A DNA stretch of 28,285 nt from an uncultured Candidatus Saccharibacteria bacterium (GCA_964359535.1 CAYHTF010000001.1:1-28285); one strand, 5' to 3'; numbered from the stretch's first letter, positions 4,789 to 27,928 are shown. The notes: generated by a model not told the origin, from the letters alone. Made by a program: numbers and translations.

Positions 4789-4812
4789 CTTCACAAGATA
4801 TACACAGTTTTG

Positions 4813-4818: not shown

Positions 4819-4839
4819 GCTGTTATACAGCAGATATTT

Positions 4840-7177: not shown

Positions 7178-7543
7178 ATGAAAAAAATTCTTTTAATTGA
7201 GGACGAGGCGGCTTTGCAAAAAACCGTGGGCGATCTTTTAATCTCCGAGGGCTACGAGGTGCGCTCGGCTCTGGACGGCGAAATCGGAGTTGCTTTGGCT
7301 CAAAGCGAAAAGCCGGACTTGATTTTGCTTGACTTAATCTTGCCCAAGCTTCACGGATTTGAAGTGCTCAAGTTTTTAAAGAGCAACGAAAGCACCAAAG
7401 ATATTCCGGTGATTGTGCTTACTAATTTAGAAAAGGTCTCTGATGTGGACAGGGCTTTGGAGCTTGGCGCGACCACTTATCTCGTTAAAGCGGCTTACAC
7501 TTTGGAGGAAATAGTGGAGAAAGTGAAAAAAGCGCTCGAATGA
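7178..7543 (+). CDS. Single-domain response regulator (CheY-like receiver)
   Basis: KKILLIEDE, phospho-acceptor context DLILLDLILPKLHGFEV, PVIVLTNL and TYLVKA. There is no output domain. Confidence 0.9.
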   Translation: MKKILLIEDEAALQKTVGDLLISEGYEVRSALDGEIGVALAQSEKPDLILLDLILPKLHGFEVLKFLKSNESTKDIPVIVLTNLEKVSDVDRALELGATTYLVKAAYTLEEIVEKVKKALE

Positions 7544-9449: not shown

Positions 9450-9451
9450 TT

Positions 9452-10681: not shown

Positions 10682-10682
10682 A

Positions 10683-11552: not shown

Positions 11553-12058
11553 AATTATTTTATGGCGCGGCAATTATAGAAATTTTAATCGCTATCGCTG
11601 TTTTGGCTTTGGTTTTAACTTCGGTTTTGGGTTTGGCCGGACTCTCGTTACAAAGCGCTGGGCTGATTCAGCAAACAGTGGCGGCCGTGAATTTGGCGCA
11701 GGAAGCAATGGAAGCGGCTCGCAGTTTTAGAGACGCCGTTGCCTGGGAGAACGAAGATCCGCAGGATCAATATGACGGTTTGGGAGTGCTCGCGCCCGGC
11801 GCTTTTTACCATCCGGCCAAGTCGCAGGACAGCCAGCCCAAATGGATGCTTTTGTCCGGCCAGGAAACATTTGGCGGTTTTTCAAGAAAAATTGTTTTTG
11901 AAAATGTTTCCCGCGACTCCAGCCAGAATATTGAATCGGTTTATAACCCGGCCAATAACGACCCGGACACTAAAAAAGCGATTGTTTCTGTTTCTTGGCA
12001 GGAGAAAGGCCGGCCGCATTCAGTTGAATTGAATACTTATTTAACCAACTGGCGATGA
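11549..12058 (+). CDS. Pilin-like protein with degenerate prepilin signal
   Basis: MKLFYGAAIIEILIAIAVLALV keeps the E5-type Glu and hydrophobic helix but lacks the canonical GF motif. ATGA overlap with the upstream gene. Confidence 0.6.
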   Translation: MKLFYGAAIIEILIAIAVLALVLTSVLGLAGLSLQSAGLIQQTVAAVNLAQEAMEAARSFRDAVAWENEDPQDQYDGLGVLAPGAFYHPAKSQDSQPKWMLLSGQETFGGFSRKIVFENVSRDSSQNIESVYNPANNDPDTKKAIVSVSWQEKGRPHSVELNTYLTNWR

Positions 12059-12570
12059 TTAAAAGGGAGGGATTCACAATGGTAGAAATATTGGTTTATG
12101 TGGCTGTTTTAGGATTGCTCGTTTCAGCTATCGCTTCTTTTTTTCTTTGGGCGTCAAATGTAAGCGCCAAAAATCAAGCGATGGCCGAAGTTCTTAATAA
12201 CGGCCAAAGAGCTCTTTCAACCATAACCATTGAAATTAGAAAAGCGAAAACCGTTTATTCTCCCACTATGTCTGCTTCGCAATTGTCGCTGGAAACAAAC
12301 GATAGTTTGGGAGCGGGCGAGACAAGCGGCTTTGTTGATTTTTTTCTGTGCGGAGAACAGCTCTGCTTGAAAAGAGAAGGCCAGCCGGTTTTGGCCATAA
12401 CTTCCGATAAGGTAGTTGTTTCTTATTTATCTTTTACGGTCGTTAATTACAGCACAACCACGGCTTCGGTTCAAATCGGATTGAAGGTTGATTATAAGGG
12501 CGGAGAGGGCAAAGCCGAGCGGCAAGCCGCGTTTAACGCGACCTCCACGGCCGCTTTGAGGCCTTATTAA
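12055..12570 (+). CDS. Prepilin-type minor pilin
   Basis: MIKREGFTMVEILVYVAVLGLLV (G|FTMVE signal). ATGA overlap with the upstream gene. Confidence 0.75.
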   Translation: MIKREGFTMVEILVYVAVLGLLVSAIASFFLWASNVSAKNQAMAEVLNNGQRALSTITIEIRKAKTVYSPTMSASQLSLETNDSLGAGETSGFVDFFLCGEQLCLKREGQPVLAITSDKVVVSYLSFTVVNYSTTTASVQIGLKVDYKGGEGKAERQAAFNATSTAALRPY

Positions 12571-12575
12571 AAAAT

Positions 12576-14390: not shown

Positions 14391-14425
14391 TTTTTGTGAT
14401 ACAATGATAAAAAGGCAATGAAAAA

Positions 14426-15520
14426 ATGTTTGACTTTTTAACCTTAAAATTGAGCGCTTTCGGTTTGGATATTTCCGACTTGTCAATAAAGTTAGCTTAT
14501 CTCAAAAAGAAAAAGGGAATTTTAGGCGTGGCTTCTTATGGCGAAACGAAATTAAAGCCGGGCCTGGTGGAGAAGGGCGAGATTAAAGACGAAAAGGGGC
14601 TGGCTGACGCGATTAAAGCCGCAGTCAAGCAGGTTAAGGGCGAAAAACTTTCCACGAATCGCGTGATAGTCGGCCTGCCCGAAGAAAAGACCTTTTCCGA
14701 GGTTATCCAGATGCCTAAAACCAAAGAGGAGGATTTGCGAAAAGCGGTTTATTTTGAGGCGGAAAATCATATTCCTTTGCCTATTGAACAGGTCTATTTG
14801 GATTTTCAAGCGGTTGAACCGTTAAGCGGCCAATCGGACCACATTGATGTTTTGCTGTCTGCTATACCAAAAACAATAGCGGACGGTTATGTGGCCGCGA
14901 TTAAAAAAGCCGGCCTGCGGCCGATGGTTCTCGAGAGCGAATCCCAGGCCGTGGCCCGCGCTCTGATTAAAGACAATACGGCCACAGCCCCGGTTCTTAT
15001 AGTTGACATAGGCGCCGTTAGGACTATTTTTACGGTTTTTTCAGGCCGTTCTTTGCGTTTCACCAGTTCTATCCCTATTTCCTGCAATGAAATTACCGCG
15101 GCTATTGCCCGCGCTTTGTCTATTGATATTGGTCAAGTTGAGGCGCTGAGCGCGCGTTTTGATTTGAGAGCAAGAGACAAAGGGGGTGAAGGAAGAAAGA
15201 TTTTTGAGGCCTTAGTGCCGGTTTTCACTGATTTACTCGAGCAGATTAAAAAATGCATTGACTATTACCAAACGCACTCCCATTACGAAAACTTGGCCGA
15301 AGGCAAGAAAGTGGAAAAAATATATCTTTGCGGCGGCTGGGCTAATATCGTGAAAGACCTCGTTGATTTTTTGGGCGCAGAATTGAAAATACCCGTTGAA
15401 CTGGCTAATCCCTGGGTTAATATCGCGCCGGGCGGGCCGGAGACGGAAGGCAATTTGCCGGGGCATGGGTTGTCTTTTGTTACAGCTCTTGGCTTGGCAT
15501 TAAGGGGAATACAGCAATGA
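14426..15520 (+). CDS. pilM: Type IV pilus assembly protein PilM (actin-like ATPase fold)
   Basis: FGLDISDLSIKLAYLKKK, IVDIGAVRTIFTVF, IYLCGGWANI. Position is upstream of pilN/pilO. Confidence 0.9.
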   Translation: MFDFLTLKLSAFGLDISDLSIKLAYLKKKKGILGVASYGETKLKPGLVEKGEIKDEKGLADAIKAAVKQVKGEKLSTNRVIVGLPEEKTFSEVIQMPKTKEEDLRKAVYFEAENHIPLPIEQVYLDFQAVEPLSGQSDHIDVLLSAIPKTIADGYVAAIKKAGLRPMVLESESQAVARALIKDNTATAPVLIVDIGAVRTIFTVFSGRSLRFTSSIPISCNEITAAIARALSIDIGQVEALSARFDLRARDKGGEGRKIFEALVPVFTDLLEQIKKCIDYYQTHSHYENLAEGKKVEKIYLCGGWANIVKDLVDFLGAELKIPVELANPWVNIAPGGPETEGNLPGHGLSFVTALGLALRGIQQ

Positions 15521-16086
15521 TTAATCTTTTACCGCCATCTGAAAAAATAATCCTCAGCGAAGAAAAAAACGCCCGGCTGGCGGCTATTCTTAGTATTGCG
15601 GCCGTGGCGTGCTTGATTTCTCTTACCGCCATACTTGTTTCCATTAATATTTATTTACAGTCCCAGTCGCAATCGCAAGTCATTATTTTTGAAGAAGCGA
15701 GCAAGCAGTTCAGGGGCTCTGAATTGCGCGGCTTGGAGCAGGAAATAACCTCTCTCAACCGTTCTTTTACCAGCTTAAAAGAGTTCTACGCGAGCAAGCC
15801 GTATCTTATCGCTGATGTTTTGGAAAAGATAAATAAGGTTGTGCCCGAGGGCATTTTTTTGGACGAAATTTCATTTAGCGTTTCCGCGAACGCGGAGCAG
15901 GAAAAAAGCGCCACGACCACGGCCCAAATTTTTCTTTCGGGTTTGGCCGTAAAAAGGAGTTTGATTTTTGATTTTAAGCGCAATCTGGAAGCCCAGTCGT
16001 TTTTCGACGAGGTTTATTTTCCTCCCGAGGACTGGGTCAAGCCGGAAAACGCCAGGTTTTCCGTTAAGCTCAAAATAGTGTTTTAG
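15517..16086 (+). CDS. pilN: PilN-like pilus assembly protein
   Basis: Characteristic MINLLP start, single N-terminal TM, ATGA overlap with pilM. Confidence 0.7.
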   Translation: MINLLPPSEKIILSEEKNARLAAILSIAAVACLISLTAILVSINIYLQSQSQSQVIIFEEASKQFRGSELRGLEQEITSLNRSFTSLKEFYASKPYLIADVLEKINKVVPEGIFLDEISFSVSANAEQEKSATTTAQIFLSGLAVKRSLIFDFKRNLEAQSFFDEVYFPPEDWVKPENARFSVKLKIVF

Positions 16087-16093
16087 CAAAACA

Positions 16094-16657
16094 ATGAAAA
16101 AAACTATTATCATCATTGTCGTTGCCGCAGTTATTGTTTCTGCTTTTATTTTTTTTGTTATCGCGCCCTTGATGGCTAATATGAAAAAAAATTCCAACGA
16201 TCTTTTGAGCGCCAAAAAAACATATTCGGCTTTACAGGAGCAAATTGACAATCTTGAGCAGTTCAAGGCAACTCGCCAGATGCTGGAATACGACAGAGCG
16301 AAAGCCGATAATTTGTTCGTTGACCCGGATATGCCCTTGCGTTTCGTCCAGCTTTTAGAGGACATTGCTGATGTCAGCCAAATAACTATCAGTATTTCGC
16401 CGGCTGGCTCAAAAGCGATAAAGGGCGATACTTGGCCGTCTATGGCTTTCAGAATTTCGGCCGCCGGTTCGACTGTTGGCTGTTTCAAGTTTTTGGAAAG
16501 ATTGGAAACAGCCCCTGCTTTGCTGGAAATCCAGAACCTTTCCATTTCCGCGATTAGCGAGGAGGAGGCCTTGCGAAGAAAGCAGCTGGGCTTGCCAACA
16601 GGCGAAGTAGAAGCCGAATTTTTAATTAAAGTTTATTCTATTAAACAACCCCGATGA
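16094..16657 (+). CDS. pilO: PilO-like pilus assembly protein
   Basis: N-terminal TM followed by a coiled-coil-like segment (LLSAKKTYSALQEQIDNLEQFK). Positional equivalence to pilO. Confidence 0.6.
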   Translation: MKKTIIIIVVAAVIVSAFIFFVIAPLMANMKKNSNDLLSAKKTYSALQEQIDNLEQFKATRQMLEYDRAKADNLFVDPDMPLRFVQLLEDIADVSQITISISPAGSKAIKGDTWPSMAFRISAAGSTVGCFKFLERLETAPALLEIQNLSISAISEEEALRRKQLGLPTGEVEAEFLIKVYSIKQPR

Positions 16658-16971
16658 ATCTTAAATCAAAAATAGACGGCGCTAAAATAAAAACATTGGG
16701 GAAGCGATTGAAAGGCCTGCCTCTTTTTGTCGGCGAACGCGCTTTTTTATCCATTATTATTGTTATTTTTATTGAACTCGTTGCCGGCGGATTGCTGTTT
16801 TACAAGTACAGCGTTTTGCCCGGCAAAATAAAAATTGAAATTTCCGAGAATGCGGCTGATTTTAACAAAGATGATTACGAACGAGTAGTTAAGTTTTGGG
16901 AAGAACGGTCCAACAGAAGCCGAATCATAGAAGATAAAGTTTATTACAACCCGTTCAAACCCCTACCTTAG
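16654..16971 (+). CDS. Small single-TM protein, last gene of the pilus operon
   Basis: ATGA overlap with pilO. TM FLSIIIVIFIELVAGGLLFY. No family recognised. Confidence 0.5.
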   Translation: MNLKSKIDGAKIKTLGKRLKGLPLFVGERAFLSIIIVIFIELVAGGLLFYKYSVLPGKIKIEISENAADFNKDDYERVVKFWEERSNRSRIIEDKVYYNPFKPLP

Positions 16972-17631: not shown

Positions 17632-18027
17632 CTATAAAATTTTAGAGTATTCTGGATAGTTTTCCTTTACTAAATTTTTCCAGTTCGCGGTTTCGTTACT
17701 GCCGCTCAAATCGTTTTTATGATAAACAACTAAAATATTAACAACACAAGTATTTTTATGAACAGCAATAATGCAACGGTTGCCTAAGGCGCGCCGGGAT
17801 TCTTGCGTGCCGTGAACGCGAAACTCTGTTTTGCAGATTTTTGCGCCTCCTTGGTCTGTGATAGTTTCAGCGATATTGGTCTCTCCAATAAGCGTATCAA
17901 TACGCTTAAACTCCTCACATATCGCGTTCCATGTTATATCCCAAGCTCCTTTATATTTTTTCTTAAACTTAGAGATAAAGTGCCGCTCAGCGTATTTTGC
18001 GACGATGACAGTGTAATTAGTAGACAT
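17632..18027 (-). CDS. Candidate toxin partnered with the Panacea antitoxin (RelE/ParE-fold-like by pattern only)
   Basis: 131 aa, overlapping the upstream antitoxin gene by 11 nt. The C-terminal half KTEFRVHGTQESRRALGNRCIIAVHKNTCVVNILVVYHKNDL resembles the K-x-R...G-x-R-hydrophobic...hhhh-Y-x-K-x-D pattern of RelE/HigB-like toxins. No confident family. Confidence 0.55.
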   Translation of the reverse strand: MSTNYTVIVAKYAERHFISKFKKKYKGAWDITWNAICEEFKRIDTLIGETNIAETITDQGGAKICKTEFRVHGTQESRRALGNRCIIAVHKNTCVVNILVVYHKNDLSGSNETANWKNLVKENYPEYSKIL

Positions 18028-18700
18028 AGTCGGGGTCTTGCTGGGTTATCAGTTCGTATGGTATGGCCTCGTCCGGGGCGCAAATTTTGTACGGGAGTTG
18101 TTCGTGGGTAAAATCGACAATGTCGCGCGTATTTTTATTTTTCCATTTCGCGCTTATCTTTTTTATAAGTTCTATTTCTTTGGTGTCCAATAGATCAAGG
18201 TTTTGATTAAAAGAAGAACCGGAAAGCGAGACAAGAAACGCGTCGCCTTTGTGGTCAACGAATATTTTGCCTTCTTCCTCAAGCTCCGCGAGCGCGCGGA
18301 AATAAGAATCTGGCACTGGGCCGTGCGCGCGGCGCAGATACTGCATTCCGCTCATGCTTTTTAGGTTTTGGTAGTACCACGCGAAATCAGCAAGGTATAA
18401 CAATTTTGCTAATTTTGTTTTTGGCACTTTGCCGTCGGCAGATACGGAAGATTTTAGGTACGCAAGGATCATCTGTTTATATTTTTCATATTCGGGCAAT
18501 GTCGCGCTGGCGAATTCCTCAATAGAAATACCGAACAAGTCTTTTAATTTTTCCGCTTCTTCCAAGGTTAATTCACGGTTTCCGCGTTCAATGCCAATAT
18601 ACGAAGGCCTTGAAATGCCAAGCTTGTCAGCCATAAAAGATTGAGGAAAACCCCGCCCCGTTCTCAACTCCCTGATGAATTGCGCGTATTTATTAATCAT
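18017..18700 (-). CDS. XRE-HTH + Panacea (DUF4065/SocA-like) domain antitoxin
   Basis: N-terminal HTH: FIRELRTGRGFPQSFMADKLGISRPSYIGIERGNRELTLEEAEKL. The C-terminal KTKLAKLLYLADFAWYYQ...YLRRAHGPVPDSY matches the Panacea-domain pattern. Confidence 0.8.
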   Translation of the reverse strand: MINKYAQFIRELRTGRGFPQSFMADKLGISRPSYIGIERGNRELTLEEAEKLKDLFGISIEEFASATLPEYEKYKQMILAYLKSSVSADGKVPKTKLAKLLYLADFAWYYQNLKSMSGMQYLRRAHGPVPDSYFRALAELEEEGKIFVDHKGDAFLVSLSGSSFNQNLDLLDTKEIELIKKISAKWKNKNTRDIVDFTHEQLPYKICAPDEAIPYELITQQDPDYVY

Positions 18701-18731
18701 ATATTTTCAGTATATAGGTTTATGTAAAAAA

Positions 18732-18760
18732 GTCAATCATAGCGTGTCAATAAACTTGAC
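18732..18760. promoter_or_regulatory. Candidate operator upstream of the HTH-Panacea operon
   Basis: The inverted repeat GTCAA-taaac-TTGAC (18746-18760) and an extra GTCAA (18732-18736) lie 30-60 nt upstream of the start at 18700, overlapping minus-strand TTGACA/TTGACT -35-like hexamers. Confidence 0.3.
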
Positions 18761-18790
18761 ATATGTTTTGAAAGACAATGAAACCAAACA

Positions 18791-18822
18791 AAAACTGGCG
18801 GGAATAATTCTCGCCAGTTTTT
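18791..18822 (-). terminator. Terminator after the RelE/ParE toxin gene
   Basis: aaaactggcg (18791-18800) pairs with cgccagtttt (18812-18821). On the minus strand the stem is followed by tttttgtttgg. Confidence 0.55.
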
Positions 18823-18841
18823 GTTATGGAACACAATATTA

Positions 18842-19087
18842 CTACTTCGGGTGCTTGATAATGTTCAAAATAAAATAGGTGTCGCCTTTAATTAGGAAGT
18901 AAAAACGAAAATTGTCATTAACTCGGCATTGCCAAATATCTCTTTCCTCGTCATATTTTTTGGCGCGCAAAGACGGATGCCTAATATTGTTTAATAAAAA
19001 ACCAAGCTGTTTTTTAAACTTTTGCTTGGTGTTTTTTGGCAGTTCTTTAAATTTATCCAAAAATGGCTCAGTAAAAATCGCTTTCAT
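18842..19087 (-). CDS. RelE/ParE-family type II toxin
   Basis: 81 aa. ...NIRHPSLRAKKYDEERDIWQCRVNDNFRFYFLIKGDTYFILNIIKHPK matches the HPSL+xKK...W..R+...yRxxf..xgdx..ilxixxH pattern of this family. Confidence 0.8.
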   Translation of the reverse strand: MKAIFTEPFLDKFKELPKNTKQKFKKQLGFLLNNIRHPSLRAKKYDEERDIWQCRVNDNFRFYFLIKGDTYFILNIIKHPK

Positions 19088-19091
19088 GATT

Positions 19092-19292
19092 TTACAAACC
19101 TTTCAAAAACGATATGGCTTCTTTTGCGCCATTAAGCGCTTCAGAAATTCTTCCTTCTTTAATAGCTTTTATGCCTTCTAAAACAGCCGCTCTTTCCGGG
19201 TCGTCAATCAAAACTCTCCCCTCCTTGACAGACCGAAGGGGAATTTTTAAAACTAAATAATTTTTTGTCTGGCTCACCAAAACTTGTTCCAT
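19092..19292 (-). CDS. Putative cognate antitoxin
   Basis: 66-aa ORF ending 4 nt upstream of the toxin start, in antitoxin-first order. Family not recognised. Confidence 0.5.
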   Translation of the reverse strand: MEQVLVSQTKNYLVLKIPLRSVKEGRVLIDDPERAAVLEGIKAIKEGRISEALNGAKEAISFLKGL

Positions 19293-19490: not shown

Positions 19491-19493
19491 ATG

Positions 19494-19577
19494 TGCCGCG
19501 GGTGGGAGTTGAACCCACACGAAGTTGCCCTCACGCGATTTTGAGTCGCGCGCGTATGCCAATTCCGCCACCGCGGC
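19494..19577 (-). tRNA. tRNA-Leu (anticodon CAA), long variable arm, no encoded CCA
   Basis: Reverse complement GCCGCGG-TG-...-CGCGA-CTCAAAA-TCGCG-(16-nt variable arm)-GTGGG-TTCAACT-CCCAC-CCGCGGC-A. Confidence 0.9.
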
Positions 19578-19598: not shown

Positions 19599-19946
19599 TG
19601 GTGGAGATGGCGGGTTTTGGACCCGCATCCGAAAATTATCGCCAAAACAATTCTACAAGCTTGTCCCGATTTAATTTATCCGCGAAAAGTATGAAACCGG
19701 ACAAAAAATTTTCGCGGCTGGCCCGTTGCTTTCAACAATTCTTCCGAGTCAAAAGAACTGTATATCTCGCTGGTATGACACTCGCTTTCGCCTAGCGAGA
19801 ATTAGCGGAGCGAATGGCTTTAAGCGTATGCTAAAGCAGGTTCTTGAAATAAGTTGGCACTTATATCATTCCTCAAAGTTTTGCGAGGTTTGAGAAAACT
19901 CGGCTTGCTTGGTTTGGTTCAATTCCCGTCGAAGCATTGCATCCCC
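19599..19946 (-). ncRNA. ssrA: tmRNA (ssrA), CCA encoded, tag ANLFQEPALAYA
   Basis: The 5' end GGGGATGCAATGCTTCGACGGGA pairs with the 3' end GCGGGTCCAAAACCCGCCATCTCCACCA, including a G3:U pair in the acceptor stem. The tag frame GCC AAC TTA TTT CAA GAA CCT GCT TTA GCA TAC GCT TAA lies at 19858-19820. Confidence 0.9.
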
Positions 19947-19950
19947 GTAT

Positions 19951-20400
19951 TTAGGATTTTTCGTTCAGCGTTCTCCGTATCTCTCTTTCCGTTTCCCTTT
20001 TTTTAATTTTCTCTCTTTTGTCAATTTCCCTCAGGCCTTTCACTAAGGCGAATTCCAGCTTGATTTTGCCGGCCTTACTATACAGCTTTAAAGGCACCAT
20101 GGTCAAGCCCTTTTGCCGGCTTTTACCCAGCAGATATTTGATTTCCTTCTTTTGTAAGAGCAATTTTCTGGAGCGGTCTGGTGAATAGTCAACGGGCGTG
20201 TTGTTCGGCTGATAAGGCGGAATGTTAGCGCCAATCAAAAAGGCCTCCTCCTCTTTAAAAACCACATAAGCGCCGCGCAAGCCAACTCTTCCGGTTCTGA
20301 TAGATTTAACTTCCTGTCCCAGCAAAACCATACCCGCTTCAAAGGTTTCCAGAATCTCGTAAGAATGGCCGGCAAATTTATTGACCGCTAATGCTTTCAT
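19951..20400 (-). CDS. smpB: SsrA-binding protein SmpB
   Basis: HSYEILETFEAGMVLLGQEVKSIRTGRVGLRGAYV...IGANIPPYQ...RKLLLQKKEI. I chose ATG 20400 (MKALAVNK) over the track start 20460, which would overlap argS. Confidence 0.9.
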   Translation of the reverse strand: MKALAVNKFAGHSYEILETFEAGMVLLGQEVKSIRTGRVGLRGAYVVFKEEEAFLIGANIPPYQPNNTPVDYSPDRSRKLLLQKKEIKYLLGKSRQKGLTMVPLKLYSKAGKIKLEFALVKGLREIDKREKIKKRETEREIRRTLNEKS

Positions 20401-20444
20401 GCCTCTATAATAGCATTTTCGCTGATTTTGGGCTATATTGAAAT

Positions 20445-21941
20445 ATGATGCTCCGAACAAAAATCAAAAAACTGCTCAAAGAAATAATCGGCCAGGAAGC
20501 GCGTCTGGAACATCCGGCTAATTTGGCTTTTGGCGATTATTCCACTAACGCGGCTATGGTGGCCAAGCTCAACCCACAAGAATTGGCTGAGAAATTAAGC
20601 GCCAACCCGCTTTTTGAAAAAGTGGAGGCGGTCAATGGTTTTGTCAACTTTTTTTTGTCGGGCAAATGTTTACGCCAGGAATTGGCTGATGTTTTAAAAC
20701 GGGGCGATAAATTTGGCGATATTAATCTTGGAAAAAATAAAAAGGTTCAAGTTGAGTTTATCTCGGCCAATCCAACCGGTCCTTTAACCGTGGGCAATGG
20801 CCGAGGCGGGTTTATGGGCGATTGTCTGGCCAATGTTTTGCGAGCCGCCGGCTTTGCTGTCCAGAGGGAATATTATATCAATGACCGCGGCACACAGATA
20901 GAGAGCTTGAAAAAAGGGCTTTACAAGGGCGAAGAGCGAACTTGGAATAAAATTCAAAAAGAAAATCAGAAGTTTATCGCCAAAAAATTGCGGATTAAGT
21001 TTGATGTTTGGTTTTCGGAAAAATCGCTTTATAAAACCAAGCAGGTTGAGAGCGTTTTGAGTTTACTGGAAAGAAAATGTCTCACTTATCGCCAAGAAAA
21101 CGCGCTTTGGCTCAAAACCATGGAGTTCGGCGACGACAAAGACAGGGTACTGGTTAGGAAAGACGGAGAGCCCACATATTTTCTGTCGGACATTGCTTAT
21201 TTTAAAAACAAAATGGCTAGGGGCTTCACTCAGGTGATTAATCTGTGGGGAGCCGACCATCACGGCTATGTGCCCCGGTATCACGCGATGATCAAGGCGC
21301 TGGGATACTCTGCGGAAAAATGGCAACCCATAATATTTCAGCTGGTTCAACTGCTCAAGAACGGCAAGGAAGTCAAGATGTCCAAAAGAAAAGGCGTTTT
21401 TATTTCGTTGGAGTGGCTGATTGGCGAAGTGGGGCTGGACGCGGCTAGATTCTTTTTCTTGACCCGAAGCGCGGACAATCATTTGAATTTTGATTTGGGT
21501 TTGGCCAAAGAACAGTCGGACAATAATCCGGTTTATTATATTCAGTACGCGCACGCCCGCATTTGCAGCATTTTGCGAAAGTTCAAAGCGGAAAACTCGA
21601 AATTTCGACACATCGACACCTCTACATCTCGAAATTTCAAACTGCTAAAACACCCGAGCGAATTGCGATTGATAAAACAACTGATTAAACTGCCGGAAAT
21701 TATTGAGGATACCACGCGCGATTATCAAGTACAGAGAGTGCCGCAGTACGCTCTGGATTTGGCCGCGGCTTTTCATCAGTTTTATCGCGACTGCAAGGTT
21801 TTGGAAGCAGACAAAAAAACCAGCGAAGCCCCGCACCATACGGCGCAGGGGCAAGCCCGTTTGGCGCTGGTTTTAGCCGCTCAAATCGTTCTCAAAAAAA
21901 CACTCGGCCTAATGGGCATTTCTTCTCCCGCCAAAATGTAG
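20445..21941 (+). CDS. argS: Arginyl-tRNA synthetase (short form)
   Basis: EFISANPTGPLTVGNGRGG is the HIGH region (here T-V-G-N). GADHHGY and KMSKRKG are present. The C-terminal anticodon-binding DALR-like region is YIQYAHARICSI. Confidence 0.9.
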   Translation: MMLRTKIKKLLKEIIGQEARLEHPANLAFGDYSTNAAMVAKLNPQELAEKLSANPLFEKVEAVNGFVNFFLSGKCLRQELADVLKRGDKFGDINLGKNKKVQVEFISANPTGPLTVGNGRGGFMGDCLANVLRAAGFAVQREYYINDRGTQIESLKKGLYKGEERTWNKIQKENQKFIAKKLRIKFDVWFSEKSLYKTKQVESVLSLLERKCLTYRQENALWLKTMEFGDDKDRVLVRKDGEPTYFLSDIAYFKNKMARGFTQVINLWGADHHGYVPRYHAMIKALGYSAEKWQPIIFQLVQLLKNGKEVKMSKRKGVFISLEWLIGEVGLDAARFFFLTRSADNHLNFDLGLAKEQSDNNPVYYIQYAHARICSILRKFKAENSKFRHIDTSTSRNFKLLKHPSELRLIKQLIKLPEIIEDTTRDYQVQRVPQYALDLAAAFHQFYRDCKVLEADKKTSEAPHHTAQGQARLALVLAAQIVLKKTLGLMGISSPAKM

Positions 21942-22537: not shown

Positions 22538-25054
22538 ATGCAGGCGATTGGATTTTTATGGATTATAGCCAGTTATCTGTTGGGCTCTTTGCCTTTTGGT
22601 TTTTTGTTTGGCCGCTGGTTCGGCAAAAAGAATGTTTTGGCCGAGGGCTGGCAGAAAACATCGGCCACTAATGTGGCCCGGGTGGCTGGTTTTTGGCCGG
22701 CTGTTTTGACTGGCGCGATGGATTTGACCAAAGGTTTTTTGGCTGTTTGGCTTGGCCAGAAACTCGGACTTTCTCAAACGGTATTGGCGTTATCTGGGGT
22801 AGCGGCGATTGTTGGCCATAACTGGTCTTGTTTTTTACGACTCAAAGGCGGCCGGGGCGTGGCCACCTTTATTGGCGCGGGTTTGGCGCTTTCTCCTCAA
22901 ATTACCATTCTTGGCGTACTGCCATTTTTATTGCTCGCTCTTATTTGGAACTCGGCCATTGGCACATTGGTTATGCTGGCTGTGATTTTAATATTGATTT
23001 TTTTGTTTGGCCAATTTTTGCCAGCCGGGCTTTTTATTATTTTGGCTTCAATAATTATCTTAATCAAAAGGCTAAATTTTCAAGCCGAATGTAAGGAAAT
23101 TTTGGCGGTTACAAAATATAAGCGGTCGCTTACATTTTGTAACCGGCTTGTTTTTGACAATGACCAGCCGCAATTTCAATTAAGATTAAAAAACATTATA
23201 GCTCGATTTGTGCCAAAAACAAAAGAGTTCTCTGAAAAAACACCGTTAGAAATGACATTTCTATCGGAGCAAGTCGAACCGATTTTTGAACTTAAGCCAA
23301 GCGATATTAAAAATTTTATCTTGTCAGCCAGGCAAAAACTCGTTCAATGTCAGGAAGAAATAAATCGGATAAATGTTTTTCCGGTAGCGGACAAAGACAC
23401 TGGCTATAATTTGGCCGCCACTTTGCGGGGTATAAGCGAGGCCATTAGTCAAAAAGATTACGATTCATTATTTGAATTATCGCGGGATATTGAAAGGAGC
23501 GCCTTGCAAAGCGGACAAGGCAACGCGGGTATGATTTTGGCCGGCTGGCTTTTGGGTTTTCTGTCGGAAATCAAAAACAAAGATGTCGTCAATAGTTCTT
23601 GTCTAATCAAAGCTCTGGAAAAAGCGGCCATTGGAGCTGAGTTGTCAATTGCCAAGCCCGTTGAAGGCACGATTTTAGACGCAATGAAAGCGGCGACGCT
23701 GAGCGCCGCTCAAGCCCCGCTTAGCGCCCCGCTGAGCGGGGCTCAAGGGGCGGATAAGCCCGATATCGCCCAAATCTTAAAAGCGGCGCTGGCGCGGAGC
23801 GAAAAAGCGCTTGGACAAACTCAAAATAAATTGGCGGTTTTAAGAAAAAATAAAGTGGTTGATGCTGGCGCTTTGGGTTTTGTGAAAATCTTGGAGGCCT
23901 GGGTGGAAGTTTTGTCCAGTCCCGGCATGGACACGATCGTGTCCGCTGGGGTTCCGCGGATAAAAACAAAAAAGCAAGCTCCAAAAGAAAACGAAAACCG
24001 ATTTGAAACCGTTTGCCGGTTCCGGGCAGATGACAACATTGATTTGGAATTTATAAAGCAAGAATTTTCTTTGCTTGGCGATTCTTTGGATTTTATCTCC
24101 GCTGAGAACGAAATGAAACTGCACATTCATACTTCTTTTCCGGAAAAAGTCAGGGAAAAACTGTCGTCTTATGAAATTGTGGAATGGCGAAGCGAAGAAT
24201 TGGTTGAGCCAGTTGGTATAGTGGTTTGTGACAGCGCCGACTTGACCGATGATTTTATCAGACAACATAGCATTGAGCGGGTATTTTTTACAGTCCGCTT
24301 TCCAAGCGGCGAGGTTGTTCATAAAGATGATTTTTTTAACCAAATGCGCGAGGCAATAAAACAAAATAAACCTTTGTCCGTCACGGCCGCGCCCTCTATT
24401 GGCGATTTTCTATCCGCTTTTCAGAAATCGTTGAATAATTTTGAAACAGTTTTGGTGATCACCCCTTCCGCTAAATTATCGGCCGCTTATACCGCGGCTT
24501 GTTCAGCCAGAGAGATGGCGCCTGAAAAACAGCGGCTTTTTGTTTTTGATTGCGATAGTTTTGAAATGGGCGAGGGATTCGCGGCTATGAAAGCCCAAGA
24601 ATTTATTGGGCAGGGCAAAAGGATTGAAGAAATAATAGGGGACTTGGAAATTTTTTGCCCAAAAATAAAAATAATCGGCTGTTTGGCGAATTTTGCTTAT
24701 GTGGCTAGAAGCGGCCGCGTTAAACTGCCTAGAATTTTAGTTGCCATATTAAACTCGCTGCCAAAGATCGGCCTGTATATTTTAGTGGCCTTAGAGCAAG
24801 GGAAAGTTAGGTTGTTGGGCCTGAGAGCTGGCTACGACCCTATTAAAATTATTGTTCAAGAAATAGAAAAGCAAACCAATGGCCGATTATCTATACTAGC
24901 CGTGGCGCACGGCGATTGCCCCGAGAGAGCGCAAGTTTTGAAAGAATTTTTGGAGCAAAAATTAAAAAAAGAAATTTTGTTTGTTTCGCCCTTGTCTTCG
25001 GTCATCGGCCTTTATACCGGCCCGGACAGTTTGGTGGTTGGTTTTGTGGTATGA
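22538..25054 (+). CDS. Tripartite fusion: PlsY-like acyltransferase + FakA-like fatty-acid kinase (Dak2 + middle domain) + DegV/FakB-like fatty-acid-binding domain
   Basis: aa 1-~185: multi-TM with PlsY motifs DLTKG and GHNWSCFLRLKGGRGVAT (motif 1 divergent: GWQKTSATN). aa ~250-460: INVFPVADKDTGYNL, SGQGNAGMILAG, KPVEGTILDAMKAA, KVVDAGALGF (Dak2/FakA N-domain). aa ~490-545: FETVCRF...LLGDSLDFISAENEMKLHIHT (FakA middle domain). aa ~560-838: IVVCDSADL, TAAPSIGDF, PSAKLSAAYTAA, FDCDSFEMGEGF, YVARSGRV (DegV pattern). Confidence 0.8.
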   Translation: MQAIGFLWIIASYLLGSLPFGFLFGRWFGKKNVLAEGWQKTSATNVARVAGFWPAVLTGAMDLTKGFLAVWLGQKLGLSQTVLALSGVAAIVGHNWSCFLRLKGGRGVATFIGAGLALSPQITILGVLPFLLLALIWNSAIGTLVMLAVILILIFLFGQFLPAGLFIILASIIILIKRLNFQAECKEILAVTKYKRSLTFCNRLVFDNDQPQFQLRLKNIIARFVPKTKEFSEKTPLEMTFLSEQVEPIFELKPSDIKNFILSARQKLVQCQEEINRINVFPVADKDTGYNLAATLRGISEAISQKDYDSLFELSRDIERSALQSGQGNAGMILAGWLLGFLSEIKNKDVVNSSCLIKALEKAAIGAELSIAKPVEGTILDAMKAATLSAAQAPLSAPLSGAQGADKPDIAQILKAALARSEKALGQTQNKLAVLRKNKVVDAGALGFVKILEAWVEVLSSPGMDTIVSAGVPRIKTKKQAPKENENRFETVCRFRADDNIDLEFIKQEFSLLGDSLDFISAENEMKLHIHTSFPEKVREKLSSYEIVEWRSEELVEPVGIVVCDSADLTDDFIRQHSIERVFFTVRFPSGEVVHKDDFFNQMREAIKQNKPLSVTAAPSIGDFLSAFQKSLNNFETVLVITPSAKLSAAYTAACSAREMAPEKQRLFVFDCDSFEMGEGFAAMKAQEFIGQGKRIEEIIGDLEIFCPKIKIIGCLANFAYVARSGRVKLPRILVAILNSLPKIGLYILVALEQGKVRLLGLRAGYDPIKIIVQEIEKQTNGRLSILAVAHGDCPERAQVLKEFLEQKLKKEILFVSPLSSVIGLYTGPDSLVVGFVV

Positions 25055-26031
25055 TAACAGATAATATTATGACTCAAATAAAAAGATTGATTATCATTGA
25101 CGGCCACGCGGTTCTGCACCGCGCTTTTCACGCTTTGCCTCCCTTGACCACTCAAAAAGGCGAGCAGGTGAACGCCATTTACGGCTTTTTACTTGTTTTT
25201 TTTAAGGCCTTAAATGAGTTTAGGCCCGACTTTGCGGTGGCCACTTTTGATTTGCCCGCTCCGACTTTTCGGCATCAAGAGTTCAAAGAATATAAAGCCA
25301 AGCGGCCCAAAATGGCCGATGAACTGGCCGAGCAAATTCCTAAAATAAAAAATATTCTTACCGCTTTTAGCGTACCTATTTTTGAAAAAGAGGGCTTTGA
25401 GGCCGATGATTTAATCGGTGCTTTGAGCCGGCAAGCGGAGCAGGAGCAAGTGGAAACAGTTATCATTAGCGGCGATTTAGATGTTTTACAGCTGGTTGGC
25501 CCTGCCACAAAGGTTTTCGCGTTGCGAAAAGGGGTTAAAGACACTGTTTTGTATGACGAGGAAAAAGTGAAAGAAAAATACGATGGATTATTGCCAAGCC
25601 AGCTTTTGGACTACAAGGCCTTGCGGGGCGACCCGTCCGACAATATACCCGGGGCCGCTGGTATTGGCGAGAAAACAGCTTTAACGCTTATTAAGGATTT
25701 TGACAATATTGAAAATATTTATGAAACCATTGAACAACAATCGGACGGCGCGGAAAAAATAACTCCAGCGGTCAAAGAAAAACTGACAGCGTCAAAAGAA
25801 CAAGTTTTTCTTTCAAAAAGATTAGTCGCCATCAGAAAAGACGCGCCAGTAGATTTAAATCTTGAGCAATGCCGCTGGGGCGATTATGATTTTGAAAAAG
25901 CGGAAAAAGCGCTTGGCGATTTTGAGTTTTACAGCTTAATCAAAAAAATACCCGCCCCGATGGCCATCGGGGCGGAACGGGCAAAACAGGAAGAAGAAAA
26001 ACCTAAACCGAGCAACTTAAAACTGTTTTAG
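25051..26031 (+). CDS. Stand-alone 5'-3' exonuclease (Pol I N-terminal/FEN-like domain)
   Basis: LIIIDGHAVLHRAFHALPPLTTQKGEQVNAIYGF, FEADDLIG, ISGDLDVLQLV, LRGDPSDNIPGAAGIGEKTA (H3TH). The ATG at 25051 overlaps the upstream stop (ATGA). The track start at 24916 lies inside the previous gene. Confidence 0.85.
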   Translation: MITDNIMTQIKRLIIIDGHAVLHRAFHALPPLTTQKGEQVNAIYGFLLVFFKALNEFRPDFAVATFDLPAPTFRHQEFKEYKAKRPKMADELAEQIPKIKNILTAFSVPIFEKEGFEADDLIGALSRQAEQEQVETVIISGDLDVLQLVGPATKVFALRKGVKDTVLYDEEKVKEKYDGLLPSQLLDYKALRGDPSDNIPGAAGIGEKTALTLIKDFDNIENIYETIEQQSDGAEKITPAVKEKLTASKEQVFLSKRLVAIRKDAPVDLNLEQCRWGDYDFEKAEKALGDFEFYSLIKKIPAPMAIGAERAKQEEEKPKPSNLKLF

Positions 26032-26043
26032 TGTAGCGTAATT

Positions 26044-26484
26044 CTATCTCCTCTTCACCCATAATGGTTGTTTCATCGTTTTCCAAACTAATTTTCCTTT
26101 TATTTGTACCCACCTTATTGCTCTTCTCAGCGTATTAATGTCATCTCCAAATTTGCCTAAACTTGTATTACAACTACTACAAAGCCACCCTCGAACACTT
26201 CCGTCTATATGGCTATGGTCTAAAACCACATCATTATTGTGTTCTCTGATAAAAGTTTTATTACAAATAGGGCAGGTAAATGGTTCACCTATTTTAGGTC
26301 GCGGGTGTGATAATTCAAAAATCTTTTTTTGTTCCGGATCTATCTTTACTTTTTTGGCGTAACATTCTCTACACACAGGTCTACGTAAGATTCTATTATC
26401 CTTGCCGTATTGGTTTGGAGCAAAATCTTCAACATTTTTACTCCTCTTACATTCTCTACAATATTTTAATTCTTTTTTTGCCAT
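26044..26484 (-). CDS. T4 endonuclease VII-family HNH nuclease with N-terminal CxxC zinc ribbon
   Basis: CPICNKTF...VVLDHSHIDGSVRGWLCSSCNTSLGKFGDDINTLRRAIRW matches the CxxC...DHxHxxGxxRGxLCxxCNxxLGxF Endonuclease_7 signature. N-terminal CRECK...CRECY. ATG 26484 lies 1 nt after the upstream stop (26486-26488). Confidence 0.8.
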   Translation of the reverse strand: MAKKELKYCRECKRSKNVEDFAPNQYGKDNRILRRPVCRECYAKKVKIDPEQKKIFELSHPRPKIGEPFTCPICNKTFIREHNNDVVLDHSHIDGSVRGWLCSSCNTSLGKFGDDINTLRRAIRWVQIKGKLVWKTMKQPLWVKRR

Positions 26485-26485
26485 A

Positions 26486-27928
26486 TTATTTAAATTTAAG
26501 GCGTTTCTGTATTGAGGATATTCTTTTTTGAGCAATATTGCAATAATCCTTGCTTATTTCACTGCCTATATAATTTCTTTCTTCAAGAATACACATTTTA
26601 GCCACAGTTCCGCTACCCATCATAGGATCATATACCACATCATGTTTGTTGCTCCACGTATAAATATGATCACGCGCTAATTTTTCAGGAAATATTGCGG
26701 GGTGTTCAAAGGCAATACCATCGCTCGTAGAGTGTCCTTTTCCAATATTGTATTCCCAGACATTTTTTCTTCTTCCGAATTCACCATAACCGCCGCGCTT
26801 TAAGTTTAATAGTTTTCCGTTTTGTAATCTTTTTGTTCCATTATCGCCACTTCTTGACTCTTTGTTTTTTCTATCCTTAATAAGGTTAACTGTTTTGGGA
26901 TTTCCTTTACTAAAAATAAACATATATTCAAATGATTGCCAATATGTTTTATTATTACCGACAGCGCCCCTTGGCGGTTTAGAATATATCATTGTGTCAA
27001 AAAGTTTAAACCCACATTCTTTAAAATAAAGCGCCTGACGAAACGAACTACCTGTTTCATCGCCTTTTATAGTTTCATCGCCAACCACCCATACAACAAC
27101 GCCCCCTTGTTTTATCACCCTAAACAAACCTTTAGCAATGCCTTCAAAGTTAAAACTGTAACCTTTGTAGTTTCTTAATTCGTCATAAGGCGGCGATGTT
27201 ACCACAAGATCTATCGAGTCGGGCGGAAATGTTTTCATTACATCTACTGCGTCGCCACAAATGATTTTATTTAGTGGTAATTCTCTGCGTTGTTCTGTTT
27301 CTTTATATTCTGGGAGTTGAATTATTGAAGCTCCTTCCTCGCGGATAACATCAAGCACAATGCCTTGTATGGAAACGCCCCGCCCATTTCTGAAAATGAG
27401 CGGCTTCATATCTTTGTTTGCCGGCTGTAAGCGGATATGCCCTTTTTCTTTGTAAAATTTCTTTAAGGTTGCTTCATGATTATCTATGAGAGCTACTACT
27501 TTTTGTCCATTTTCGGCTGTTTCTTGCTGGCGCACTAAAACAACATCTCCGTCATTTATATTTTCGTCAATCATACTATTGCCAACCACGCGGAGAGCGT
27601 AAACTTCTGACGAGTAAGGAATTTTGCTTTTAGGAACAGCGATAGTCTCTCTATCTATAATTGTTTCTATTGGCTGGCCCGCGGCAATAGTTCCCAAAAG
27701 TGGAATTTTTATCATTGTTTCGCGGCCTAATGTTTCAATGGAGCGCGGTTTGTTTTCTTTTTTTGACAGGTATCCCAAATCGCGGAGCTTGGAAACATGA
27801 AAATGCGCCGTTGAAACAGACGCGAGCTTGAATTTCTTGCGTATCTCGTCAAGAGAGGGGGCGTATTCTTTCCGCTTTTGATAATCGGTTATGAAATCAA
27901 GAACTTGTTTTTGCTTTTTTGTGAGCAT
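26486..27928 (-). CDS. LexA (wHTH + S24 peptidase) fused to a beta-class N4/N6 DNA methyltransferase (SPPY)
   Basis: aa 1-~198: LTKKQKQVLDFI...SLDEIRKKF...HVSKLRDLGYL (LexA wHTH), LLGTIAAGQPIE (Ala83-Gly84 site), LRVVGNSM (Ser117), ATLKKF (Lys155), IQGIVLDVIRE. aa ~220-480: IICGDAVDVMKTFPPDSIDLVVTSPPY (motif IV), FEHPAIFPEKL, VVYDPMMGSGTVAKM (motif I). The frame is uninterrupted. Confidence 0.85.
   Translation of the reverse strand: MLTKKQKQVLDFITDYQKRKEYAPSLDEIRKKFKLASVSTAHFHVSKLRDLGYLSKKENKPRSIETLGRETMIKIPLLGTIAAGQPIETIIDRETIAVPKSKIPYSSEVYALRVVGNSMIDENINDGDVVLVRQQETAENGQKVVALIDNHEATLKKFYKEKGHIRLQPANKDMKPLIFRNGRGVSIQGIVLDVIREEGASIIQLPEYKETEQRRELPLNKIICGDAVDVMKTFPPDSIDLVVTSPPYDELRNYKGYSFNFEGIAKGLFRVIKQGGVVVWVVGDETIKGDETGSSFRQALYFKECGFKLFDTMIYSKPPRGAVGNNKTYWQSFEYMFIFSKGNPKTVNLIKDRKNKESRSGDNGTKRLQNGKLLNLKRGGYGEFGRRKNVWEYNIGKGHSTSDGIAFEHPAIFPEKLARDHIYTWSNKHDVVYDPMMGSGTVAKMCILEERNYIGSEISKDYCNIAQKRISSIQKRLKFK

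Follow-up and report, generated by a model that had tools for sequence, protein, structure and literature searches.

A PlsY-family membrane module, a FakA-like kinase and a DegV/FakB-like domain in a single polypeptide of Patescibacteria: a candidate one-chain route from fatty acid to acylated glycerol-phosphate

The DNA analysed here, called the window, is a stretch of 28,285 nucleotides attributed to an uncultured Candidatus Saccharibacteria bacterium (GCA_964359535.1 CAYHTF010000001.1:1-28285). It carries on its plus strand, at 22538..25054, a complete open reading frame (ORF) of 838 codons, from an ATG start to a TGA stop, whose product joins an N-terminal membrane module of the PlsY family, of a kind that we call W-type, to the FakA_N (Dak2) and FakA_M kinase domains and to a C-terminal DegV domain. 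We read this protein, with slightly better than even confidence, as a self-contained, membrane-anchored machine that would convert an exogenous fatty acid into acyl-phosphate and use the latter to acylate glycerol-3-phosphate (G3P).

An earlier note, made from the sequence alone, had proposed the fusion, which the single 838-aa ORF confirms. All the motifs quoted there were found: GWQKTSATN (residues 37-45), DLTKG (62-66), GHNW (93-96) and LKGGRGVAT (102-110) in the N-terminal part, DKDTG (285-289), GNAGMIL (328-334), KPVEGTIL (373-380) and VVDAGALG (440-447) as Dak2/FakA signatures, and LGDSL (513-517) and KLHIHT (527-532) in the middle domain. Profile searches placed four domains on the protein, each above its Pfam gathering cut-off: PlsY (PF02660, residues 12-177, E = 4.4e-31, 108.6 bits for a cut-off of 24.1), Dak2 (PF02734, residues 282-456, E = 2.3e-23, 83.4 bits), FakA-like_M (PF21645, residues 488-545, E = 2.2e-6, 27.9 bits, just above the cut-off of 24.9) and DegV (PF02645, residues 562-836, E = 2.6e-38, 132.4 bits). 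Five Pfam families matched the fusion protein at E <= 1 and FakA_C, whose accession we take to be PF13684, was not among them; the C-terminus is therefore a DegV domain and not the usual FakA C-domain, as had been claimed. NCBIfam models agreed with Pfam at the domain level (DegV TIGR00762, 142.6 bits, over its cut-off of 99.7) and all their function-level cut-offs were missed: YloV (TIGR03599) reached 195.7 bits for a cut-off of 396.1, aligning only to profile position 403 of 530, FakA (NF038248) reached 104.8 bits, far under 975, and the PlsY equivalog models other than TIGR00023, to which we return below, were all far under theirs. Among solved structures, sequence search matched aaPlsY (5xj5, E = 1.3e-16), FakA (7w7h, E = 2.4e-22) and DegV (1pzx, E = 1.6e-16), the kinase domain also matching PDB entries 7ed6, 8vip and 7rm7. 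Foldseek comparison with the PDB gave target-normalised template modelling (TM) scores of 0.87-0.92 to FakA_N structures and mostly of 0.76-0.81 to FakB1, FakB2 and DegV structures.

A chimeric assembly, or read-through of neighbouring plsY, fakA and degV genes, could give the same picture. In one related locus (L016) the W-type plsY and the gene for the Dak2, middle and DegV domains (Dak2-M-DegV) are indeed separate adjoining ORFs, in the order of the fusion, and in one metagenome-assembled genome (MAG) L014 and L039 are two contigs over which the gene is broken. Three further contigs (one ENA assembly and two Logan runs) nevertheless carry the identical 838-aa gene without interruption, and two ENA assemblies besides these carry, likewise uninterrupted, a member of its >=90%-identity cluster that is called 17 aa shorter. 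The four domains are moreover united in single proteins of more than 120 distinct homolog clusters, drawn from JGI, ENA, NCBI and Logan. Because the intact ORF recurs in other assemblies, the fusion is neither a frameshift nor an assembly artefact, and the objection that the gene might prove to be split fails; we regard this explanation as ruled out, the probability left to it being negligible. Record names of the assemblies that hold the gene ('Hain_H43', leading to Hainich samples) indicate a groundwater origin.

The protein is no isolated case and belongs to a widespread family. A homolog search over 5.8 billion proteins returned 2220 matches. All family counts below refer to the best 120, which share 37-46% identity with the query, measure 814-920 aa and without exception have the same four Pfam domains. 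The clusters with the triple-fusion architecture, more than 120 in number, all apparently belong to Patescibacteria (Paceibacteria/Parcubacteria), and NCBI names the homologs 'glycerol-3-phosphate acyltransferase' of Candidatus Pacebacteria/Paceibacterota or of 'Patescibacteria group'; in public annotation at large the fusion proteins are 'glycerol-3-phosphate acyltransferase' or 'hypothetical'. On clustering at 50%, the window protein itself represents the cluster to which it belongs. It departs from the family at about 15 positions where 115-119 of the 120 agree and often has there the canonical PlsY residue (ATNVxR, KGGRGVAT, Asn180), which makes it a divergent, possibly early-branching member. 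Searching the representatives with the PlsY module gave only 19 clusters (50% identity) at E <= 1e-30, the matches of odd length being truncated fusions or an unrelated PlsY-Sua5 fusion. One protein of 403 aa, P0178, joins a canonical-type PlsY to a Sua5/YciO/YrdC (threonylcarbamoyl-AMP synthase family) domain.

The AlphaFold2 model, built with 59 homologs, has a mean predicted local distance difference test score (pLDDT) of 84.3, with low-confidence stretches at residues 34-37, 225-244 and 464-485. Its N-terminal helices (2-28, 52-75, 80-95, 108-118, 120-136, 139-157 and 160-178) can be read as seven transmembrane helices with a short fourth one, as in aaPlsY. Loops 29-42 and 96-107, both basic, are on one side in the model together with the basic tail past residue 177, again like aaPlsY; from these K/R-rich loops and tail sharing one side we draw an N-out/C-in topology with the Fak module in the cytoplasm, so that the predicted topology supports the cytoplasmic C-terminus expected earlier. 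The membrane module (aa 1-225, 22538..23212) is thus defined by PF02660, by 5xj5 and by seven predicted transmembrane helices. It bears a conserved cytoplasmic tail (KRL.. / NRLxFD / basic helix) common to the stand-alone W-type homologs, which are 215-227 aa long and end past this same tail. A length-variable linker with pLDDT < 50 (aa 225-244, 23210..23269) leads to the FakA_N/Dak2 (DhaL-like) ATP-Mg binding kinase domain (aa ~255-462, 23300..23923; PF02734, PDB and Foldseek matches). Then come a flexible tether, also with pLDDT < 50 (aa 464-485, 23927..23992), matching the loop between FakA_N and FakA_L of S. aureus, the FakA middle (L/M) domain (aa ~488-552, 23999..24193; PF21645, aligned to 7w7h residues 261-305) and the DegV/FakB-like fatty-acid-binding domain (aa 559-838, 24212..25051; PF02645, TIGR00762, Foldseek), all on the plus strand.

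Across the 120 homologs, the Dak2 residues D285, D287, T288, G289, G328, N329, G331, G377, T378, D381, D442, G444 and G447 are invariant, as are the motifs DKDTG, GNAG, PVEGTILD and VVDAG, the pattern of a FakA_N ATP-(Mg2+)2 domain. The Dak2/FakA identity given earlier to the middle part of the protein therefore holds, on PF02734, on the FakA_N fold match and on these motifs. In the middle domain the pair H529-x-H531 is conserved, each residue in 120/120, and corresponds to H282/H284 of S. aureus and H289/H291 of S. suis. In these enzymes the pair belongs to a Cys/His cluster (C240, H282 and H284 in SaFakA; C244, H289, H291 and H226 in SsFakA) and is needed for activity, one group considering the histidines catalytic and the other zinc ligands (PMC9136124, PMC10848957).

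The order of the domains is collinear with that of whole FakA in the FakA/FakB systems of Firmicutes (S. aureus, S. suis; 7w7h, 7rm7, 6w6b, FakB1/B2), with which the fusion has in common the Dak2/DhaL-like ATP-Mg domain, the flexible loop, the His-x-His middle domain and an EDD-fold C-domain. Unlike FakA, it has as its C-domain a bona fide DegV with FakB residues, so that kinase and carrier form one chain; it is membrane-integral through its N-terminal PlsY module, and the cysteine of the middle domain is not kept in the family. A tethered layout has a parallel in the single-chain ATP-dependent dihydroxyacetone kinases (DhaK-DhaL), where an EDD-fold substrate domain and a DhaL/Dak2 domain are joined and the phosphoryl group passes between tethered domains; their order, however, is K-L and not L-M-EDD as here, they have neither middle domain nor membrane module, and their substrate is dihydroxyacetone. 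S. aureus FakA has a 34-residue flexible linker between FakA_N and FakA_L, and its FakA_C, structurally a degenerate relative of FakB, only docks FakB, FakA_NL being active with a KM for FakB raised about 10-fold (PMC9136124); Shi et al. term FakA_C a DegV subunit (PMC10848957). Since FakA_C only docks and FakA_NL stays active, a tethered DegV can plausibly substitute for it.

The DegV domain of the fusion matches its profile over the full length and has the EDD-type two-subdomain fold. The residues of S. aureus FakB that bind the carboxylate or serve phosphotransfer are, in a numbering that we partly assume, Thr61/62, Ser93/95, Arg170/173 and His266/270. Their equivalents, mapped by motif context and domain offset and not by structure superposition, include T616 (107/120), S648 (113/120) and R727 (118/120), the last being equivalent to FakB Arg173 (PMC9136124). 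In a three-way comparison, the fused DegV domains retain the full Thr/Ser/Arg/His set, free DegV proteins of the surveyed loci keep Thr/Ser/Arg with I/V/L/N at the His position, and the DegV-like domains of the unfused proteins of L051, L053, L054 and L046 have largely lost the set, as in FakA_C. As it retains the FakB residues that the FakA_C-like versions lost, the fused domain looks like a working carrier and not only a dock. In fold and in its Thr/Ser/Arg fatty-acid and phosphotransfer residues it is like FakB; unlike free FakB, which shuttles between membrane, FakA and PlsX/PlsY, it is covalently attached.

Binding of acyl-phosphate in aaPlsY falls to Thr41 and His92 together with the backbone of the Gly-rich loop around Lys104-Val106, and the phosphate of G3P is clamped by Ser35, Arg45, Lys104 and Asn180, with Ser142 and His177 also lining the site; S35A loses >92% of activity, S35C/T keep 4-17% and H177A keeps 6.5% (PMC5700162). 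We compared the W-type module with these residues in three alignments, one with 5xj5, one of the 120 family members and one of 22 W-type, 9 second-paralog and 122 other PlsYs. The acyl-phosphate side is kept. Thr41 is S or T in 120/120 (Thr44 in the window; T in 85 and S in 21 of the 122 other PlsYs), the motif 1 residue Asn42 is N in 120/120 (Asn45; 118/122), His92 is H in 116/120 (His94; 116/122), and Gly105 of the acyl-phosphate loop is invariant (117/122), as are all of the 'phosphate hole' residues G104, G105, R106 and G107. The corresponding segments are cytoplasmic loop 1, equivalent to PlsY motif 1 by the aaPlsY alignment and the family counts (aa 37-48, GWQKTSATNVAR, 22646..22681, plus strand), and His94 with the Gly-rich loop (aa 93-110, GHNWSCFLRLKGGRGVAT, 22814..22867, plus strand), equivalent to aaPlsY His92 and motif 2. 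The strings in the earlier note are thus present under partly wrong labels: GHNW...KGGRGVAT comprises His92 and motif 2 (residues 100-107) and not motif 3, and DLTKG is a conserved element without being one of the three named PlsY motifs, the real motif 3 being H177-R-x-N180-I-x-R-L in the Lu 2007 / Li 2017 nomenclature (PMC5700162). Many polar intramembrane residues of the W-type module are also invariant and, together with the conserved equivalents of Thr41, His92 and Gly105, argue for a working active site. Like aaPlsY (5XJ5) and S. pneumoniae PlsY, the module is predicted to have seven transmembrane helices, a short fourth one and two functional cytoplasmic loops, and like aaPlsY it has equivalents of Thr41, Asn42, His92, the Gly-rich phosphate hole and, as Thr, Ser142. 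Unlike aaPlsY, it has the extra conserved cytoplasmic tail, co-occurs with other PlsY types and scores under the TIGR00023 cut-off.

To place the fusion among its relatives, GTDB species genomes were scanned with two family-specific exact peptide patterns, giving 56 loci; because exact patterns were used, this survey undercounts and is biased to W-type/ADKDTGYN sequences. Nearly all the loci come from MAGs labelled Patescibacteria, Parcubacteria, Nealsonbacteria or Paceibacterota; some 'Saccharibacteria' labels look generic, and one contig is labelled Dehalococcoidales. A hidden Markov model (HMM) scan of all ORFs within ±10 kb of each locus distinguished three states. The complete fusion is present in 16 loci, besides L020, where it is cut by the contig end, and the broken L014/L039. 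Elsewhere the PlsY-like module stands alone (215-227 aa), often directly downstream of a second, low-scoring PlsY paralog. In the third state, a PlsY paralog comes directly after an unfused Dak2-M-DegV gene (L019, L021, L046, L051, L053, L054), with a stand-alone W-type module adjoining or a few kb off; four of these six loci also have a free DegV.

In most of the other members, fused or stand-alone, the W-type gene directly precedes nusA, and H+-PPase and/or clpP usually come after. The genes of L062 are, in order, CCA enzyme, methyltransferase, free DegV, UPF0102, CDP-alcohol phosphatidyltransferase, CarS-like cytidylyltransferase, fusion and nusA. In L053, L051 and L054, the unfused Dak2-M-DegV gene and the plsY paralog that directly follows it, overlapping by 4 bp in L053, lie inside a lipid cluster; in L053 the genes from CarS to the W-type PlsY encode a small membrane protein, Dak2-M-DegV, the PlsY paralog, a geranylgeranyl reductase, a UbiA prenyltransferase, a polyprenyl synthase and a PcrB/GGGPS-family enzyme. 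These contexts tie the W-type module to glycerophospholipid assembly and, as they couple Fak and PlsY-family genes independently of the fusion, argue for joint action of the two in this lineage. Coupling of Fak and PlsY in L053 and L062, with the conservation of kinase and fatty-acid-binding residues over 120 homologs, supports their joining as the earlier note had it. Its suggestion of a lipid-scavenging host, here a candidate phyla radiation (CPR) bacterium, finds support in the domain make-up, the Patescibacteria homologs, the survey loci and the topology.

The L053 cluster, from a marine Patescibacteria MAG, extends over about 13 kb (L053:1977-13456), and HMM positions show the same layout in L051 and L054. 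Its free DegV, its unfused Dak2-M-DegV, both its PlsY paralogs, its CDP-alcohol phosphatidyltransferase and its CarS-like enzyme are interleaved with an ether-lipid gene set of archaeal type, made up of the polyprenyl synthase, the PcrB/GGGPS-family enzyme, the UbiA prenyltransferase and the geranylgeranyl reductase; the W-type PlsY comes directly after the PcrB-family gene, and no PlsC-family gene is found there. Villanueva et al. (2020) reported GGGPS/DGGGPS homologs in one Parcubacteria genome and do not mention a linkage of the L053 type. Separately, acetyl-CoA-carboxylase-like genes lie directly upstream of the PlsY gene or genes in Nealsonbacteria/Parcubacteria genomes supposedly devoid of fatty-acid synthesis (L030:5924-9924; L035:5955-9971; L025:8394-9968; L041:2061-4140). 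They comprise in L030 a biotin carboxylase, a biotin/lipoate ligase-family protein and a ~520-aa carboxyltransferase, and in L025 and L041 putative matching carboxyltransferase-like ORFs.

By analogy with the Firmicutes system, the fusion protein could work as follows. The C-terminal DegV would take a free fatty acid from the inner leaflet, at the cytoplasmic face, as FakB does, and the Dak2 domain with ATP-Mg2, the His-x-His middle domain and Arg727 would phosphorylate its carboxylate to acyl-phosphate. Two flexible linkers would hold the loaded DegV within reach of the PlsY-family module with its seven predicted transmembrane helices; the labile acyl-phosphate, released beside this module, would enter laterally and be bound by Thr44, His94 and the GGRG loop, and the acyl group would pass to a glycerol-phosphate acceptor, most probably G3P, yielding lysophosphatidic acid. 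The covalent tether would stand in for the docking of FakB by FakA_C and would also shield the hydrolytically labile intermediate, an argument put forward by Li et al. (2017) for the PlsY-DegV fusions described below. Such a route would require neither acyl carrier protein (ACP) nor PlsX nor type II fatty-acid synthesis (FASII). Domain identities, residue conservation, gene integrity, spread in Patescibacteria and linkage to phospholipid genes in relatives are observed and the topology is predicted; the catalytic steps, channelling and which acceptor is used are inferred.

A related arrangement has been described. Li et al. (2017) report PlsY-DegV fusions in Bellilinea caldifistulae and Thermanaerothrix daxensis (A0A0P6X7I7, A0A0P6XUK7) and read them as evidence of acyl-phosphate channelling from FakB to PlsY (PMC5700162). 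The present protein likewise has PlsY at its N-terminal end and a FakB-like DegV at the other end of a single chain. The 2017 fusions are, as described, without the kinase (Dak2 and middle domains), whereas about 330 kinase residues lie here between PlsY and DegV; they come from thermophilic Anaerolineae, the rationale given being the thermal lability of acyl-phosphate. On that description they stand apart from the present family, which adds the kinase, is found in CPR and has a remodelled PlsY.

Several observations weigh against the one-chain route to acylated G3P. The predicted TM-score (pTM) of the AlphaFold2 model is 0.47, so that inter-domain geometry is not reliable. Cys493 is present in the window protein and replaced by F, L, A or S in the family, and the FakA_M cysteine is thus not conserved. 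At position 826, the carboxylate-binding His is found in 100/120 and Tyr in 18/120, and the window protein has Tyr826. In six loci a free DegV gene of ~300 aa lies directly upstream of the fusion (L001:7520-8476; L003:9977-10873; L009:456-1364; L011:3-530; L017:9974-10879; L020:9943-10836), so that the fatty acid might be carried by another DegV besides, or instead of, the fused one. The membrane module scores 101.8 bits with the PlsY equivalog TIGR00023, under the cut-off of 137.2, its G3P pocket is remodelled, and related genomes hold a PlsY paralog with Ser/Thr at position 35 beside a stand-alone W-type gene, which suggests that the W-type may have a different job. The claim that the whole route is joined in one polypeptide accordingly stands as far as the four modules in one chain are concerned, and its G3P step is put in doubt by the pocket, the TIGR00023 score and the second paralog.

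With regard to the carrier, the fused DegV could be this lineage's FakA_C, a docking or regulatory domain, a free DegV carrying the fatty acid, and the protein would then be PlsY plus FakA. Canonical FakA_C, too, is a FakB-binding domain of degenerate DegV/EDD fold, the TIGR03599 (YloV) alignment runs to residue 684, inside the DegV domain, and free DegV genes lie not only upstream of the fusion in the six loci but also near it in L062. The fused domain nevertheless matches DegV/FakB over its full length and keeps the Thr/Ser/Arg/His set that the clearly FakA_C-like versions largely lost, while the free DegVs at these loci are without the His (the upstream ones, five of the six being checked, keep Thr/Ser/Arg and have I, V or L for it), and no free DegV gene is found in the ~38 kb around the window's gene. 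Judged by these residues, a degenerate, FakA_C-like dock is unlikely, and docking and carrier roles are not mutually exclusive.

The change in the PlsY module is concentrated on the acceptor side. Ser35 of the G3P clamp is Trp in 119/120 (Trp38 in the window; S/T in 107/122 other PlsYs) and Asn37 of motif 1 is Lys in 120/120 (Lys40; N in 90/122). Arg45 is mostly Lys in the family (Arg48 in the window; R in 105/122), Lys104, which serves both the clamp and acyl-phosphate, is Arg in 120/120 (K in 81 and R in 34 other PlsYs), and Ser142, which contacts the 2-OH of G3P, is Thr (S in 80, T in 15). His177, also a 2-OH contact, is replaced by Lys or Arg with a register of ±1 (H in 88/122), and Asn180 of the clamp by Ser/Pro, the window having Asn in one register (N in 86/122). 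At the position of motif 3, found by alignment (aa 177-181, KRLNF, 23066..23080, plus strand), the family consensus is KRLSP with K, R and L invariant; the alignment register there is ambiguous by one residue, and His177 is absent in either register. The divergence of motif 1 noted earlier (GWQKTSATN) is thus real and extends beyond it, motif 3 being divergent too (IKRLNF). From these alignments, the W-type is a distinct subfamily of PlsY paralogs in which the acyl-phosphate site is kept and the acceptor site has been remodelled and afterwards frozen, a pattern that indicates a retooled enzyme and not a decayed one. We rejected the idea that it is simply the lineage's ordinary PlsY with a sloppy motif 1, the substitutions being family-invariant and stand-alone orthologs and co-resident paralogs existing.

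These paralogs are frequent. At least nine species genomes have a Ser/Thr35-type PlsY directly followed by a W-type gene (L025, L041, L024, L032, L034, L036, L040, L045, L048), and in another three the pair is interrupted by a free DegV gene. L025 (9974-11261) has a 199-aa PlsY (GSKSPTATNVAR, GHIFPVFFKFKGGRGGAT, LRNNIKRL) and, within 5 bp after it, a 227-aa W-type protein, and in L041 (4201-5644) a 210-aa PlsY of the GTGNVGAMN type precedes a 215-aa W-type. Paceibacteria seem to have at least three PlsY subtypes, the W-type, a 'GSKSPTATN' type and a 'GTGNVGAMN / ETKNVGALN' type, the last with Met/Leu for Thr41.

With the same kinase front end, the W-type module might therefore acylate an acceptor other than G3P, such as lysophosphatidic acid (an ACP-independent sn-2 acylation replacing the PlsX/PlsC route), glycerol-1-phosphate (G1P) or prenylglyceryl phosphate, the G3P step falling, where it is present, to the separate Ser/Thr35-type PlsY. 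A clamp specifically remodelled and then frozen (W38, K40, K177/R178) beside a conserved acyl-phosphate site speaks for this, and so do the tandem paralogs and the cluster of L051, L053 and L054, which has both paralogs, the Fak gene and a free DegV, no PlsC-family gene, and the W-type gene directly after a PcrB/GGGPS-family gene; CPR bacteria are moreover without the PlsX/ACP that PlsC would need. Yet the ±10 kb around each fusion gene and the ~38 kb around the window's gene are free of a second PlsY, and in L030 (a complete genome) and L035 (a 636-kb contig) the W-type is alone at the conserved pre-nusA position, so that it may be the only PlsY and have to use G3P. Also, R45K, K104R and S142T are conservative and keep a basic phosphate-binding pocket, K104R occurring in 34/122 ordinary PlsYs, and Probst et al. 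report PlsC in Nealsonbacteria (PMC7242380). We hold a change of acceptor to be rather improbable. An acyl-phosphate-dependent acyltransferase with a non-classical acceptor, lysophosphatidic acid being the leading candidate and G1P or an ether-linked lyso-lipid the alternatives, is accordingly put forward as a tentative possibility.

The loss of the key G3P-clamp residue, a score under the PlsY equivalog cut-off and the other PlsY paralogs of the lineage could also mean that the module is catalytically dead, a membrane anchor or lipid conduit for the kinase, with the acyl-phosphate used by a separate PlsY. To this we give little credence: about 30 polar or glycine positions of the active-site loops, including His94 and GGRG, are invariant over homologs only 37-46% identical, and the stand-alone W-type proteins have nothing to anchor. 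We retain acylation of G3P by the W-type module as the favoured reading.

In the window, the fusion gene is flanked by a divergent HD-domain gene and, downstream, by a 5'-3' exonuclease gene (25051..26031, plus strand) whose ATG overlaps the fusion stop codon (ATGA), as in L058 and L060; from this overlap the two are probably co-transcribed, but the exonuclease is not functionally part of the lipid module. The locus is not syntenic with the nusA-linked position of the other members. No lipid genes are found in the 28-kb window or in the 10 kb further downstream in a near-identical contig, and no other PlsY, Dak2 or DegV genes in the ~38 kb seen around the gene.

The rest of the window has features of its own. 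On the minus strand at 26486-27928 lies a gene for a 480-aa protein with LexA DNA-binding, S24 peptidase and N4/N6 DNA methyltransferase domains, a LexA-like repressor–methylase fusion. It overlaps by ~50 nt an endonuclease VII-family gene (26044-26535, minus strand), the pair also occurring in L060, and the G+C content of its stretch is 0.35 vs ~0.44. A D12-class adenine methyltransferase, an HNH endonuclease and an N4/N6 methyltransferase (1037-3563, minus strand, G+C 0.30-0.35) form a probable restriction-modification island adjoining tRNA-Pro (3672-3743). An apparent type IV pilus operon (7683-16971, plus strand) encodes a PilB-like T2SSE ATPase, a PilC-like T2SSF protein, PilM, PilN, two prepilin-type N-methylation proteins and several further ORFs; upstream of it are a histidine kinase (3844-4788), an AAA_14/DUF4143 ATPase of low G+C (4810-6021) and a response regulator (7178-7543). 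In the region 17632-19277 (minus strand), a protein with helix-turn-helix (HTH) and SocA/Panacea antitoxin domains (18017-18700) overlaps a 131-aa ORF (17632-18027), possibly a toxin-antitoxin pair; coordinates transferred from L057 add a weak ParE-toxin-like 81-aa gene (~18842-19087) and its 61-aa partner (~19092-19277). The tmRNA gene (19599-19946, minus strand; tag peptide ANLFQEPALAYA) lies between tRNA-Leu (19493-19577, minus strand) and the adjoining smpB (19951-20460, minus strand); the argS start (20445) overlaps the start of the listed smpB ORF, and the L057 calls put the smpB start further in.

The components are in part familiar, FakA/FakB and PlsY being textbook knowledge and the handover from FakB to PlsY and the PlsY-DegV fusions having been described in 2017 (PMC5700162). 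In the open-access literature we found no description of a triple fusion with the kinase or of Fak in CPR, nor of the restriction to, or spread in, Patescibacteria, of a live DegV replacing FakA_C, or of the W-type PlsY. To our knowledge, CPR/Patescibacteria, a large share of bacterial diversity, are without fatty-acid synthesis, ACP and PlsX. Probst et al. (2020), who found PlsY and PlsC in Nealsonbacteria and no PlsX or ACP functions, asked where the acyl-phosphate would come from (PMC7242380). For the lineages that carry it, the fusion family offers a testable answer to this question, namely that scavenged fatty acids are phosphorylated and used on the spot, and could explain how CPR bacteria, ultra-small and without fatty-acid synthesis, build membranes from them. 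As a natural single-chain construct with every component, it bears on the assembly of the active site from FakA_N, middle domain and FakB, on acyl-phosphate channelling to PlsY and on the descent of FakA_C from a working DegV. The acceptor pocket of the W-type and its co-occurrence with other PlsYs, in some cases beside archaeal-type ether-lipid genes, suggest unexplored acyltransferase chemistry. If the acceptor is indeed other than G3P, Paceibacteria would make phosphatidic acid wholly from Fak-derived acyl-phosphate, with no ACP, PlsX or PlsC, and the fusion would be the committed, channelled step of an unrecognised ACP-free phospholipid pathway.

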